A stretch of 61,629 nucleotides of DNA from a virus (IMGVR_UViG_3300043772_002642:1-61629); one strand, 5' to 3'; counted from the stretch's first letter, positions 21,565 through 51,015 are shown. Translations and numbers: made by a program. Notes: generated from the sequence alone by a model not told the origin.

Positions 21565-22629
21565 ATGTTATTATATTTTGAACCTGCTATAACCGCTATT
21601 AAATGGCCTCGAGTAATTGAGGCTCTTAAAGTTTTACATCCTAAATTAACATGGGCGAGTAGAGTTAATCTAGATTCATTTAACCCCTTTGAAGCATTTG
21701 ATCCACTTTCTCAAAATGTAATTTCATTACCACCAATTAACAGTCTTATTATAGATTTTTATGATAAATTATCTTACGGTAGATTTCCAAATCCTGAGTC
21801 AATGTCAAAACATGCGGGTTATGGTTATGGTACTAAAGTTGTTGATGGTTGGGAATATCTAGGTATGAAACAAGATACTGATTCTATTTTTGATTCATTA
21901 GATGAATCTTATATGACGGATGCGGAACATGTTGAACATTTTTTAGAAACAGGTAAATTGTTAAATGGTACTTATTATTTCGATCCACCATTAATTGTAC
22001 CTGAGATTGAACAACTGCATTATATGTTTGGTCACATTAAAGGTAATAAAATTATTTTAAATCCTATAACAACTCAATTTGGTCACTCTATCTACGCAAG
22101 TCAGACTTTGGTTTGGCTTGATGTTAGTAACAATACAATTACAGGTTGGCAAAACGTTGATGACGCTGATGATGAAGATGGTGAATATGTTTTGAATAGT
22201 CTGCAAGGCATTCAAAGATGGTGTGCCAACAATGGTTGTCAGGAACCATTCCGTGATGGTCGTTTATTCTTAGATTATGAATTACCAAATACTGAAGATA
22301 TATTTAACCAATTAAATGAATCGGATGAATTTGATTGGGTTGATATTAGTACAGATAGTTTATCAGGTCAAAGACTATATGACACTATCCAAAATTATTT
22401 TAGTACATATCATAATGATAGATATTGGCTTGAAGAAGAAGATGGGGTTATTCGAATTTGGGATGACACAGGTATCTACTACGATTTTAAGTTAGAAGAC
22501 TTTACCATTCCGAACTTGATAGATTATTTTAAAGATTCAATGACTAATATAGAGGACCCAGAAGTTAAAGAAGATTATATCCAATTAGCTAAAACCCTAG
22601 AATCAATCATCGGACCAATAAATTTTTAA
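21565..22629 (+). CDS. Three-module putative polyprotein
   Basis: Linkers TDSIFDSLDE-S and TEDIFNQLNE-SDEFDW. The first module resembles the F(D/E)P..DGW repeats of 48030-49418. Confidence 0.8.
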   Translation: MLLYFEPAITAIKWPRVIEALKVLHPKLTWASRVNLDSFNPFEAFDPLSQNVISLPPINSLIIDFYDKLSYGRFPNPESMSKHAGYGYGTKVVDGWEYLGMKQDTDSIFDSLDESYMTDAEHVEHFLETGKLLNGTYYFDPPLIVPEIEQLHYMFGHIKGNKIILNPITTQFGHSIYASQTLVWLDVSNNTITGWQNVDDADDEDGEYVLNSLQGIQRWCANNGCQEPFRDGRLFLDYELPNTEDIFNQLNESDEFDWVDISTDSLSGQRLYDTIQNYFSTYHNDRYWLEEEDGVIRIWDDTGIYYDFKLEDFTIPNLIDYFKDSMTNIEDPEVKEDYIQLAKTLESIIGPINF

Positions 22630-22631
22630 AT

Positions 22632-24029
22632 ATGTCAAATTTCAATAATATAAAAATAGGTGATACAATTTATGTTACAGGTATAGAGGCAGATTTATAT
22701 GAATGTAATGATGATAATTATGAAGTTTTATTATCGGTTGTAAATCAATTTTGTAAGGTCGTGGATGTTGCTGACAATGTTGATTTGTATAATTTATCAG
22801 ACGTTGATGGTGATTATTGCCTAGAAAAAACACAGAGAGGTGTTTTAATTCAAAGCCCAAAGTTACAAGGACATGATGGTAATGGTAGATGTCCTGAATT
22901 TAATTGTTATTGGATTGGTAAAGACTACCTTAGTTTTAGTTCAATGTCTTTAGATGATACAATCAATATATTTGATAAGTTAAACGAATCTAATGAATTT
23001 GGTTGGGCTCAAGAAATTATTAAAGATGTCCCTGATGTTGTTGATTATCGTACTGTAAAACAAGGTGACAAAGTTGTCCCAGGAAAAGATTGGTTGTTTG
23101 GTAATCAAGCTCAAGGTTCTGTTTATGGTATTGTTGATTTAGAAGAATACGGTGGTGAACCAGCATATATTGAGGACAGTACATATGAGGAATTTTGGCA
23201 GTATTGGGTCCATGTTGATTGGGTTGATAAAAATGGTAACCCAAATTTTAGAAACAATTATCGTGTTGGTCCTGAATATCACGATTTAAAATACTATGTT
23301 CCAAAACCACCTAAAAGAAAAAAAGATATTAAGGAATCGGAAGAAAATATAAAAGAAATTACTCATAACGACTTACGAGTTGGTATGACGGTTATTGTTG
23401 ATGGTTATGATGTAAATGAAAAAACCCAAAAATGGGAAAATAAGATAGGTACCGTTGTTTATAATTATAATGAGGATGAAGATGATACTAGTAATAGTTT
23501 TACAATAAGTTTTAAAGATTGGGCTAACGGTCATGACGGTAGTAACCTAGTGGAGTGTGGTAGTGATAAATGTTGGTCATTCTACGACGACTGTGCGTAT
23601 AGTGAGGAAAATAATTGCCAAAATATAGATGGAATTAAATTTTACACCGTAAATACATATGATTTATTTGACCAATTAAATGAATCGGAAGATGATGAAT
23701 TTGGTTGGGTTAAAGAAACCATAAGTCAAGAATATAATAGATATGGTGATATTTTACCTTATTTGGATTTTGACGATATTATTTCCGTTACAGGTGATTT
23801 TACTGACGATTACGGAAATGTATTATTGTCGGTTGAAGATGTGCCTTTCAAAGTTTACAAAAAAAACAATATAGTATATTTAAAATGGGCCCAACCTGAA
23901 GATGAAAGACCTAATGGTTGGTCAAGTATATCCAATACTAGTGAAGAAGTACACATGGGTTCAAGTACCTTTGAGTGGGACAAAGAATTAATGGTTAAAT
24001 TTTTACACAAAGAAGACCACCCCTTTTAA
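22632..24029 (+). CDS. Four-module putative polyprotein including a Mib/Herc2-like domain
   Basis: Linkers TINIFDKLNE-SNEFGW, DIKE-SEE and TYDLFDQLNE-SEDDEFGW. Module 2 is GDKVVPGKDWLFGNQ..V.VDW..NNYRVG..HDLK; modules 1 and 3 share GHDG..C. Confidence 0.8.
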   Translation: MSNFNNIKIGDTIYVTGIEADLYECNDDNYEVLLSVVNQFCKVVDVADNVDLYNLSDVDGDYCLEKTQRGVLIQSPKLQGHDGNGRCPEFNCYWIGKDYLSFSSMSLDDTINIFDKLNESNEFGWAQEIIKDVPDVVDYRTVKQGDKVVPGKDWLFGNQAQGSVYGIVDLEEYGGEPAYIEDSTYEEFWQYWVHVDWVDKNGNPNFRNNYRVGPEYHDLKYYVPKPPKRKKDIKESEENIKEITHNDLRVGMTVIVDGYDVNEKTQKWENKIGTVVYNYNEDEDDTSNSFTISFKDWANGHDGSNLVECGSDKCWSFYDDCAYSEENNCQNIDGIKFYTVNTYDLFDQLNESEDDEFGWVKETISQEYNRYGDILPYLDFDDIISVTGDFTDDYGNVLLSVEDVPFKVYKKNNIVYLKWAQPEDERPNGWSSISNTSEEVHMGSSTFEWDKELMVKFLHKEDHPF

Positions 24030-24267
24030 TTTCAAAATTAATTTCTTACATTTATGATATGAGAAAGTTTTTTAAAATTCTTAACCCTTTATATTGGGTT
24101 AAGTTGTACATTTACACAAGAATTAATAACAGAAAAAATTTTTAAGATGAAAAGAAAAGACCAAGAAGAATTTTCTTCTAAATTAGTTTATTATGGCTTT
24201 ATGGGATTATTGATGGTATTATTAGTTCTCGCAATTACAAAACGGTAATATTTATGGTTAAAAAGCC

Positions 24268-49717: not shown

Positions 49718-49719
49718 AT

Positions 49720-49941
49720 ATGATTCGTACAACAGTTGTTAAATACAAAGGGGTTGAGTTAACTTGTAGAGGGTACCATTCCCCTTACAAAGACAATGGT
49801 TATGACAACCCACCTGAATATGAGTGTTTTGAAATTGACACTGTCCATTACCACGATACCGATGTGACCGAATTAATGGATACTTTTAATTTTGATTGGT
49901 CAGAATTAGAATGTTTATGTCTTGAGTCCTTAAAAGACTAA
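49720..49941 (+). CDS. Hypothetical protein
   Basis: 73 aa ORF. Confidence 0.65.
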   Translation: MIRTTVVKYKGVELTCRGYHSPYKDNGYDNPPEYECFEIDTVHYHDTDVTELMDTFNFDWSELECLCLESLKD

Positions 49942-49959
49942 TCAGGATATTTATATTTG

Positions 49960-51015
49960 ATGATTACGGCAGATTATTTATTTGACAAAAAAATTATATG
50001 GTTAGGTAACGACTTAATCTGTGCTGACAATTTTCCATATTTTAAAAGTGAATTAATTACTGTTTTAGAGTTTTTAGGTAAACGTCCGTTCTACAATCTT
50101 ATTTCTCAAATAGAAAGTGATATAATTAGTAAGGGTGATTGTTTATGGTACATACGTTTATATAAAGATAATGACGGTCCCAGAGTTACTTACTATTCAG
50201 CCGGTGAATTTGATTTGGAAGATGCGATGGGGGCTTATAGGGAACATATTGACATGGGGTACGAACCTTTAAAATGGTCTGATATTATAGACATCGATAC
50301 CAATACCGAAGATATTTTTAATAAACTAAACGAATCTTTTGATAACACTTTAATTGGTAAACAAATATGGTTTGACTTCCCAACCGAAAGAAACGATATA
50401 GAAAAAGTAAATCAATTTTTAATTGATAATGGTTATCGTGGTTTAAGACCTGATAACATAGATGAATTTGAAGGATTTATTTATGACTATGATGTTGCTT
50501 TTTTTTATTTTGTACAACACGATTCACCTTTACATTCCGAAGAAAGAAGAAAACCATATGTTGATTATAGTTACATGAACCACCCAGACCCTTATAGGTT
50601 AAGAGTGAAACCAAATTGGATTTATTATAAAGATATTTTGGAAATGACTGACACTACAGTTGACATTATATCTAACCTAAACGAATCCACCGAACAACCA
50701 ACACCAAAAGCTGGTGATTTTCTTTATTGTCATACAGATGTTGTTATGGAAGATAGTGGTGACGAAGAAGCAACTGTCGGTAAATTTTATCCTATTATAA
50801 AAGTTTCCCAAAATAAAAATCGAGTAGAAATTCTAAACAATTCTAAAACTGAACATGTTTTTAGTATTGACCCGGAAGAAGATTGGCATTATAGCAAATG
50901 GTTTACTTTAATTCCGAGAAAGGATAAAGAAGCTATGGAAAGATTTGATATTGATGATGTTTTCAATAAATTAAATGAAAGTTTTAACCTTTCTGATATT
51001 TCACCATTAGAGTAA
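49960..51015 (+). CDS. Three-module putative polyprotein
   Basis: Linkers TEDIFNKLNE-S, TVDIISNLNE-S and IDDVFNKLNE-S; GATATTTAT upstream. Confidence 0.8.
   Translation: MITADYLFDKKIIWLGNDLICADNFPYFKSELITVLEFLGKRPFYNLISQIESDIISKGDCLWYIRLYKDNDGPRVTYYSAGEFDLEDAMGAYREHIDMGYEPLKWSDIIDIDTNTEDIFNKLNESFDNTLIGKQIWFDFPTERNDIEKVNQFLIDNGYRGLRPDNIDEFEGFIYDYDVAFFYFVQHDSPLHSEERRKPYVDYSYMNHPDPYRLRVKPNWIYYKDILEMTDTTVDIISNLNESTEQPTPKAGDFLYCHTDVVMEDSGDEEATVGKFYPIIKVSQNKNRVEILNNSKTEHVFSIDPEEDWHYSKWFTLIPRKDKEAMERFDIDDVFNKLNESFNLSDISPLE

Follow-up and report, generated by a model that had tools for sequence, protein, structure and literature searches.

In phage T4 the prohead protease gp21 cuts C-terminal to Glu, after L/I-X-E; internal proteins are described as carrying N-terminal capsid-targeting propeptides of 10–19 residues, Alt being processed at its C terminus as well, and an Asp at the last position (P1) of the capsid-targeting sequence (CTS) as blocking processing while targeting is kept (PMC9026906). 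The T-even internal proteins are presented as diverse defence proteins that have the CTS alone in common (PMC3012670). Here we describe a 61,629-nucleotide stretch of viral DNA (IMGVR_UViG_3300043772_002642:1-61629; 'the window' denotes the whole of it) in which six open reading frames (ORFs) encode chains of small modules, termed bead proteins, connected in five of the six by a conserved peptide, the joint, x-T-x-D-[IVL]-F-N-x-L-N-E-S. We tentatively read these ORFs, at slightly less than an even chance, as capsid-targeted cargo polyproteins cut at L-N-E↓S by a prohead protease (↓, predicted cut); their cleavage, their packaging and any role of the beads are what we infer from the features described below. 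The source is, by its sequence, an uncultured jumbo phage of the T4 superfamily, with a genome of ~270 kb as estimated by CheckV.

The bead proteins have the genomic features of the T4 system, known here from sequence alone. As in T4 IPI, IPII, IPIII and Alt, a short N-terminal peptide ending in L/I-x-E stands on otherwise unrelated proteins; a protease of the family of gp21, which is Glu-specific, is encoded in close relatives (Peptidase_S77); and the cargo is diverse and fast-changing, the address alone being conserved, as is described for the T4 internal proteins (PMC3012670, PMC9026906). The locus differs from the T4 CTS system in that several modules share a gene through an internal joint that is much longer (~14 residues) and whose left half doubles as a free C-terminal tail, [DE]F[DEG]W follows the predicted cut site, most chains lack an N-terminal tag, and the modules are strongly acidic.

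Polyvalent proteins (Iyer, Burroughs, Anand, de Souza, Aravind 2017, PMC5512222) likewise hold many domains on one polypeptide, 2–15 from a pool of conflict-related domains, and are predicted to be packaged and delivered with the DNA and proposed to be processed into units, in the authors' analogy to viral polyproteins. Two of their defining features, recognisable enzymatic conflict domains and a usually present embedded zincin-like peptidase (MPTase), are lacking in the bead proteins, which have instead a repeated conserved joint; the word 'linker' is absent from the main text of PMC5512222. The giant phages phiKZ, 201phi2-1 and SPN3US encode a gp21 homologue as well, a diverged one, and many of their inner-head or ejection proteins are cut after the Glu of a short motif; the number of head-protein paralogues in a family varies between phages (PMC5694885, PMC9026906). 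They differ in their S/A/G-x-E motif and propeptides of >100 amino acids (aa), no repeated inter-module joint being described in the passages cited, and the phage analysed here has, in its relatives, a T4-type portal and capsid protein. The statement in the original prediction that polyprotein processing on this scale is not a standard feature of tailed phages was overstated, because T4 and phiKZ-like phages are described as processing many head proteins. At the level of titles and abstract openings, no description was found of natural multi-module CTS-joined polyproteins or of this joint.

The joint and its fit to a Glu-specific cut

The joint spans 12–14 residues and occurs in 11 in-frame copies that connect modules in five + strand ORFs (Table 1). 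A strict protein pattern, [IVL][FI][NDS][QKSN]L[NDG]E[SN], was scanned in 128 ORFs (19,936 aa) and matched 11 times, whereas 2000 within-ORF residue shuffles averaged 0.006 matches and never gave more than 1; this bears out the joint as a real feature. A six-frame scan of the window with a slightly narrower pattern gave 10 matches, each of them in the coding frame of one of the five + strand ORFs; other frames and the − strand gave none. The codons are synonymously variable at almost every position, with Ser encoded by TCT, TCG, TCC, TCA and AGT, Leu by TTA, CTA and TTG, and variation in the Ile/Val, Phe and Asn codons too; the exact string CAATTAAATGAATC is found in some copies only. Because the codons vary synonymously, with Ser drawn from both of its codon families, the joint appears to be selected as a peptide and not as DNA; its copies are not near-identical as DNA, and the earlier idea of conserved DNA was overstated.

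All six ORFs are present as first described, with one qualification: the protein on the − strand, 3971–5098, has the right half of the joint and L-x-E-S joints, the left half (D-I-F-N) being absent. Also recovered were ...TEGIFNQLD* as a free C terminus (49418) and the embedded whole tag IFNQLGE-SIKRIIKE-EMDEFEW at 47636–47701. The right half, [DE]F[DEG]W, also follows N-terminal tags at 19487, 31053, 47094 and 5098(−), as had been noted. These tags, M(K/R)NLIRKILKE(S/E), stand on a dozen or more unrelated ORFs of the window, with synonymously variable Arg and Leu codons. The N termini of the bead proteins at 21565, 22632, 47339, 48030 and 49957 have no tag; in these a module begins at the start and L-N-E is found at internal joints only.

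The fit to a Glu-specific cut was assessed with linkers defined from positions P10–P3 only, so named from the predicted cut, which gave 148 non-identical internal linkers from 91 proteins; these proteins are related, and the counts that follow are not independent events. P1 is Glu in 145 linkers, Lys in 2, Ala in 1 and Asp in none; two of the three non-Glu cases look like in-domain false matches, and in the third the Glu is shifted by one residue. The next residue, P1′, is Ser in 117 of the 148 and otherwise G, N, D, E, T, Q, A or, once, L. Other acidic positions of the joint exchange Asp, Asn and Glu freely (P8, in a separate count: D in 107, N in 34, E in 11). With Glu at P1 in 145 of 148 linkers and never Asp, the joint fits a Glu-specific L/I-x-E protease. 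Among 25 non-identical C-terminal copies, 22 end one residue past the Leu (D in 13, N in 4, I in 2, and G, K and T in 1 each); the C-terminal copies lack exactly the Glu-Ser pair, and the native ends of bead proteins mimic the predicted cut ends.

Module structure and shuffling among relatives

In an AlphaFold2 model of the 462-aa protein at 48030–49418 (22 alignment rows), four separate folded modules are seen, with means of the predicted local distance difference test (pLDDT) over 10-residue blocks mostly at 62–90. All four copies of the motif lie at pLDDT <50 (aa 106–123, 223–237, 347–362 and 451–462), with a short helix at most. The expectation that modules fold independently and linkers are flexible is thus borne out in one usable model. 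The model of 22632–24029 (10 alignment rows) has a mean pLDDT of 48, is confident at aa 134–226 only, and is too poor for any judgement of the LNES-xEFGW joints. We propose that each bead would be an independently folding, strongly acidic domain of about 90–130 aa. The six bead proteins have isoelectric points (pI) of 4.1–4.9 and net charges of −20 to −60; the other ORFs have a median pI of 6.1.

Searches of Pfam-A and PHROG gave no family for any of the six bead proteins, the sole match being a sub-threshold one to MIB_HERC2 in a beta module (aa 145–220) of 22632..24029, and the Pfam search found no embedded peptidase family in them. With the model of 48030–49418, Foldseek returned nothing from the PDB at E ≤1e-3; the highest Z from VIA-align wide was 5.5, reached by the last small beta module only, with no fold assigned. 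A search of the ESM Atlas with one module gave no usable match. These fold searches are no evidence of a new fold. A predicted complex between the scaffold-like protein and the last bead (residues 535–672) of a homologue in G003, a relative described below, scored 0.00 in both runs, the controls being unfolded, and so counts neither for nor against binding.

A search of 5.8 billion proteins returned 58 homologues of 318–764 aa, all metagenomic and some on contigs of 232–312 kb. In an exhaustive HMMER search, one module as query matched just 33 representatives among 1.84 billion proteins, and nearly all of these have several modules. A search for related loci gave none with a single-protein query and 6 with an alignment query. 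Across the homologues, modules have been added, dropped, duplicated, inserted, reordered, fused and split, or relocated from the N terminus to the middle or C terminus, always by way of the same joint peptide. The largest module cluster is one alpha/beta family, with 281 of 451 pieces, obtained by single linkage and probably over-merged. The joint follows at least five unrelated module clusters, small beta-barrel modules among them.

The relative G003 is collinear with the whole window (85 of 106 ORFs of ≥60 aa matched, median identity 88.9%), and the bead genes are among the most diverged of the pair, at 50%, 49% and 71% identity compared with ~89% overall. Where 21565–24029 and its counterpart in G003 differ, an insertion of ~347 aa, which takes in three modules and a gene boundary, falls precisely between two joints; residues 1–115 of 21565..22629 are 86% identical to residues 1–113 of the G003 homologue, and module content differs beyond them. 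Module A of 47339–48028 is fused straight to the homologue of 48030–49418 in G003 and in three further homologues (P0013, P0021 and P0031). Residues 10–358 of 3971–5098 are 71% identical to residues 124–468 of its G003 homologue, which has an extra module and the internal linker FFDSLTE-SEEEFDW in place of the tag, so that tag and linker are interchangeable at this orthologous junction. The module of the stand-alone gene 31053–31460 clusters with modules that lie behind internal linkers in two homologues (P0062 and P0063), a 91-aa single bead in G003 (34348–34623) has both the tag and a C-terminal ...NIFNQLDPE*, and the module that opens bead proteins as M-YQPKL... also stands internally, as ...LNES-T-YQPKL.... 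Since orthologous modules in the window and its relatives sit behind either a tag, a joint or a gene boundary, these three are interchangeable. The check on relatives thus agrees with the expectation that module order and number vary and that stand-alone tagged forms exist. Conserved DNA had also been suggested to promote module shuffling: codon variation argues against a conserved DNA element, and recombination at the joints is still plausible because the ends of indels coincide with them.

Head genes, promoter-like site and neighbouring genes

Peptidase_S77 (PF03420, the T4 gp21 family) was found in three of the five related records searched (G002, G003 and G005; E about 1e-29), and a Gp23-family capsid protein (PF07068) in three of three. 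In G003, whose contig continues into a T4-type head module, a T4-type portal gene (Portal_T4, E 1.4e-75) is followed by the protease gene (Peptidase_S77, E 3e-28), a scaffold-like gene for an acidic coiled-coil protein and the capsid-protein gene (Gp23, E 1e-61). A T4-type prohead protease, of a family with L/I-x-E↓ specificity (PMC9026906), had been anticipated and is thus found in a close collinear relative. The closest cultured relatives of the capsid protein are in Flavobacterium phage immuto and a Microcystis phage, at ~41–42% identity over ~40% of the protein; the joint motif was not found in the immuto record or in the 484-kb uncultured record LR756508. The T4 cut sites we take to lie after residue 65 of gp23 and after residue 10 of gp24. 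The G003 capsid protein reads ...LINE↓TTTAGG, aligned at the gp23 E65 column, which is invariant (T4 gp23 ...FLTE↓AEIGG, gp24 ...LLRE↓STT), so that its putative propeptide site falls at the same alignment column as that of T4 gp23; the G005 protein reads LINE↓TTTAGG like that of G003. P3–P1 is I-N-E in the capsid protein and L-N-E in the linkers.

The protease of this clade (G003 97152–97979, G005 82560–83342) has a conserved (F/Y)(T/M)E↓(S/N) where T4 gp21 has ITE↓S, followed by a variable spacer and a conserved C-terminal tail, ...(L/I)(L/I/M)(N/D)xL(N/K)(K/R)FL*, which may be a self-removed targeting tail. The idea that the bead motif copies this tail (...LLN.LNKFL*) was rejected after a position-weight scan, which placed it 65th among 87,149 windows for G003 and returned nothing for G005. 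Beside the protease gene of G003 (L018:5607–7139, − strand) lies a 510-aa PolyA_pol-family protein of the CCA-adding type, with the tag MKNLIRKILKEE and a weak C-terminal phosphodiesterase-like match; in G005 a 139-aa ORF (83396–83815) opens with the same tag and first residues.

A promoter-like site, ATATTTAT, lies 8–45 bases upstream of bead genes and of many tagged genes, and its copies track gene orientation (25 on the + strand, 7 on the − strand). In relatives it also lies upstream of sheath, portal, protease and scaffold genes, at greater distance, and not upstream of the DNA polymerase B, ClpB-like and glycosyltransferase genes identified there, which are few. From this small sample the pattern is consistent with co-expression of bead and head genes. 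The site often ends 2–6 bases before the start codon of tagged or bead genes, from which leaderless or near-leaderless mRNAs would result. In G005, a + strand block of ~20 kb (50–71 kb; L022–L023) lacks the site, contains a two-domain glycosyltransferase and has DNA polymerase B just upstream; it probably represents a different temporal class.

Other leaders are found besides the tag. A second class, (K)VIRLTExDLERMV(K/R)(K/R)IIKE(S/D), occurs at 43826 and 44792 in the window and in the head-gene clusters of G003 and G005, beside protease or capsid genes. Paralogous large proteins of 327–938 aa, every one of them encoded behind ATATTTAT, have another N-terminal leader, ...(I/L)(I/L)E(Q/N)(I/L)(I/L)(T/L)E(G/N/S)R(I/V/L)(D/E)D..., which includes L-x-E and may be a third class of address. 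The tagged stand-alone proteins gave sub-threshold family matches only. Among them, the 162-aa product of 36357–36845 matches the ADP-ribosyltransferase (ART) family Tox-ART-HYD1 at E 0.006. The Alt protein packaged by T4 is an ART, and 36357–36845 would be a parallel to it if the match is real.

Cultured phages gave no match to the locus: a blastn search with 21565–24029 and a tblastn search with the 462-aa protein returned 0 among 50,697 phage records. No tRNA genes were found within the window. It contains two PAS/HATPase histidine-kinase genes (8803–11795), and several of its ORFs (749, 10404 and 29945) have Bacteroidota-style signal peptides ending ...SQ, a sequence trait that hints at a Flavobacteriia-type host.

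Table 1 Positions of the bead proteins, tagged genes and associated elements (window coordinates unless a relative is named)
Feature	Position	Strand	Details
Window	1–61629		61,629 bases; IMG/VR virus record; CheckV completeness 23%; G+C ~30%
Bead protein, 354 aa, 3 modules	21565..22629	+	linkers 21874–21909 (DTDSIFDSLDES) and 22288–22323 (NTEDIFNQLNES, then DEFDW)
Bead protein, 465 aa	22632..24029	+	linkers 22956–22991 (DTINIFDKLNES + NEFGW) and 23652–23687 (NTYDLFDQLNES + EDDEFGW)
Stand-alone gene, 83 aa	47094..47345	+	N-terminal tag MNIQKILKEE-MDEFEW; first gene behind the ATATTTAT site upstream of bead genes
Bead protein, 229 aa	47339..48028	+	module A, then linker 47624–47659 (DTENIFNQLGES), embedded whole tag (SIKRIIKEE-MDEFEW, to 47701) and terminal small beta module
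Bead protein, 462 aa, 4 modules	48030..49418	+	linkers 48357–48392, 48705–48740 and 49080–49115; free C-terminal left-half copy 49383–49415 (TDTEGIFNQLD*)
Bead protein, 352 aa	49957..51015	+	linkers 50302–50337, 50653–50688 (TTVDIISNLNES) and 50947–50982 (DIDDVFNKLNES, 11 residues ahead of the stop); alternative starts TTG 49957 or ATG 49960
Tagged bead protein, 375 aa	3971..5098	−	N-terminal tag (V/M)RNIINKILKE-SEFDW at 5051–5098; right-half joints RLSES-EKDDFGW (DDFGW at 4754–4768) and PLNES-EDDFGW (4379–4393)
Stand-alone tagged gene	19487..20572	+	KNLIRKILKE-SEDEFDW..., tag plus right half
Stand-alone tagged single module	31053..31460	+	KDIIKEILKE-SENEFDW...
Tagged ORFs	19487, 31053, 33306, 34662, 35276, 35956, 36357, 39053, 47094	+	N-terminal tag
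Tagged ORF	5098	−	N-terminal tag
Paralogous large-protein set	1915–3384	−
Paralogous large-protein set	17929–19482, 51416–52840, 54340–55323	+
Paralogous large-protein set, relatives	G003 62518, 85111; G005 93769, 114084
ATATTTAT site, examples	21550–21560, 47080–47090, 49945–49955, 31040–31050, 33292–33300

A possible capsid-targeting polyprotein system and its rivals

In the capsid-targeting reading, the joint would have two parts: an amphipathic, helix-prone stretch of docking type ([YF]-D-x-T-x-D-[IVLM]-F-N-x-L), followed by L-N-E↓S as a Glu-specific site for a gp21-type (Peptidase_S77) prohead protease. Precursors would be made alongside the structural proteins, enter the assembling prohead core and be cut there after Glu. 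A released bead would keep a ...D-I-F-N-Q-L-N-E tail, the last bead of a chain already ending ...I-F-N-Q-L-D/N, and would start, where this part is present, with S-[DE]-x-F-x-W. On stand-alone genes, the tag M-K-N-L-I-R-K-I-L-K-E↓S would be the same device at a protein start, comparable to the T4 CTS. As for what the beads would do, the obvious guess is that they are anti-defence proteins like T4 IPI, injected into the host. Cutting would separate the beads in any case, so that modules could be fused, split, inserted or reordered at the joints at little cost, which would explain their rapid shuffling. Short C-terminal peptides also send cargo into HK97-fold shells in the case of encapsulin cargo-loading peptides and of the C-terminal tail of the HK97 protease; though unrelated to it in sequence, they may serve as a model for the ...DIFNQL(D/N) tail, whether retained or free. 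A further-reaching version, which we regard as doubtful, is that tag, joint and C-terminal tail form a three-form address-and-cut grammar that lets any small gene join or leave the cargo polyproteins by recombination, that dozens of diversifying acidic effectors are injected, and that the retained ...D-I-F-N-Q-L-N-E tail is a second signal, for cargo loading or host targeting.

The main rival, on the unlikely side and still a serious one, is that the chains remain uncut and that the joint is a short linear motif folding on a common host or phage partner, with the bead proteins as multivalent binders or scaffolds that display the peptide several times over, once at the C terminus. It would account for the ~14 conserved residues, far beyond the needs of a T4-type site, for the low-confidence, flexible character of stretches with short helix propensity, for the motif at the free C termini of 32 of the 58 homologues (scored by eye in a column of the last 12 residues) and for its attachment to unrelated module families. 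For helix binding, however, neither the strict Glu at P1 (0 Asp in 148) nor the small residue after it is needed, and C-terminal copies lack exactly the Glu-Ser; the swapping of gene boundaries and linkers between close relatives fits beads that act separately, and no partner is known. Cutting at L-N-E↓S might alternatively take place in the cytoplasm, either by the S77 protease working outside the capsid or by a different enzyme with Glu specificity; the products would be soluble effectors that stay out of the head. This draws on the same cut-site evidence as the prohead reading, and acidic beads and a tagged PolyA_pol-family enzyme suit the cytoplasm better than packaging. We nevertheless judge it improbable: T4 gp21 is described as acting on head and core proteins during prohead maturation, the N-terminal tags match T4 capsid-targeting propeptides in length and form, and no second protease was found among the few ORFs of the relatives that were scanned against Pfam. 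The gp21 protease is not known to be active outside the assembled prohead.

Quite improbable, too, is a functionless joint, spread by duplication and recombination as the conserved cap at the C terminus of each domain in a repeated family, its low pLDDT being an artefact of shallow alignments. Most modules do fall into the one, probably over-merged, alpha/beta cluster, the family is narrow, judged by its 33 representatives, and only 22 alignment rows underlie the 462-aa model; against this, at least five module clusters that are unrelated to one another, small beta-barrels among them, end in the same joint, its right half recurs behind the N-terminal tags of unrelated stand-alone genes, and the invariance of E-S at internal copies only would be left unexplained. 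That the DNA is the conserved element, as a recombination or regulatory signal with the peptide as a by-product, is hardly credible and largely refuted by codon variation, which extends nearly everywhere and includes Ser from the TCN and AGT families; the frame is always kept, and no copies lie in other frames or on the other strand. The points in its favour are that the ends of indels and of fusion or fission events between the window and G003 coincide with joints, and that some copies have stretches such as TTTAATCAATTAAATGAATC in common. Three further ideas, a sliding-clamp-binding motif, glycosylation sequons and 2A-like skipping, fitted poorly when judged by eye only and were set aside.

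Several observations weigh against cleavage in the prohead and packaging. L/I-x-E carries little information and is no denser in the bead proteins than elsewhere (1.25 against 1.45 per 100 aa), the 148 linkers come from related proteins, conservation reaches back 10 residues or more before the putative cut, and the motif also stands at C termini, where no cut is needed; much of this pattern would be explained by a joint that binds a partner and stays uncut. Most bead chains lack an N-terminal tag, so that targeting would have to rest on the linker. Next to packed DNA, beads as acidic as these would be awkward to accommodate; the unrelated tagged proteins, a dozen or more, would make an unusual number of head-cargo species; and in G003 the tag stands on a CCA-adding-type enzyme. 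The second structure model is too poor to allow generalisation. The ATATTTAT site also lies upstream of a two-component operon and other non-structural genes and is no proof of late timing. Neither protease nor head genes were found in the window itself; because the window is a fragment without such genes, that part of the argument is carried over from relatives.

If the capsid-targeting reading is true, it would provide a sequence rule for spotting virion-delivered effectors in metagenomes, where such proteins have no family annotation, and natural designs for multi-cargo loading of T4-based delivery vehicles. Cutting of the joints in the prohead would mean that the T4 capsid-targeting principle has been expanded here from a few single tagged proteins to a combinatorial polyprotein system, and would account for the way in which jumbo phages come to carry injected proteins in large and rapidly changing sets.

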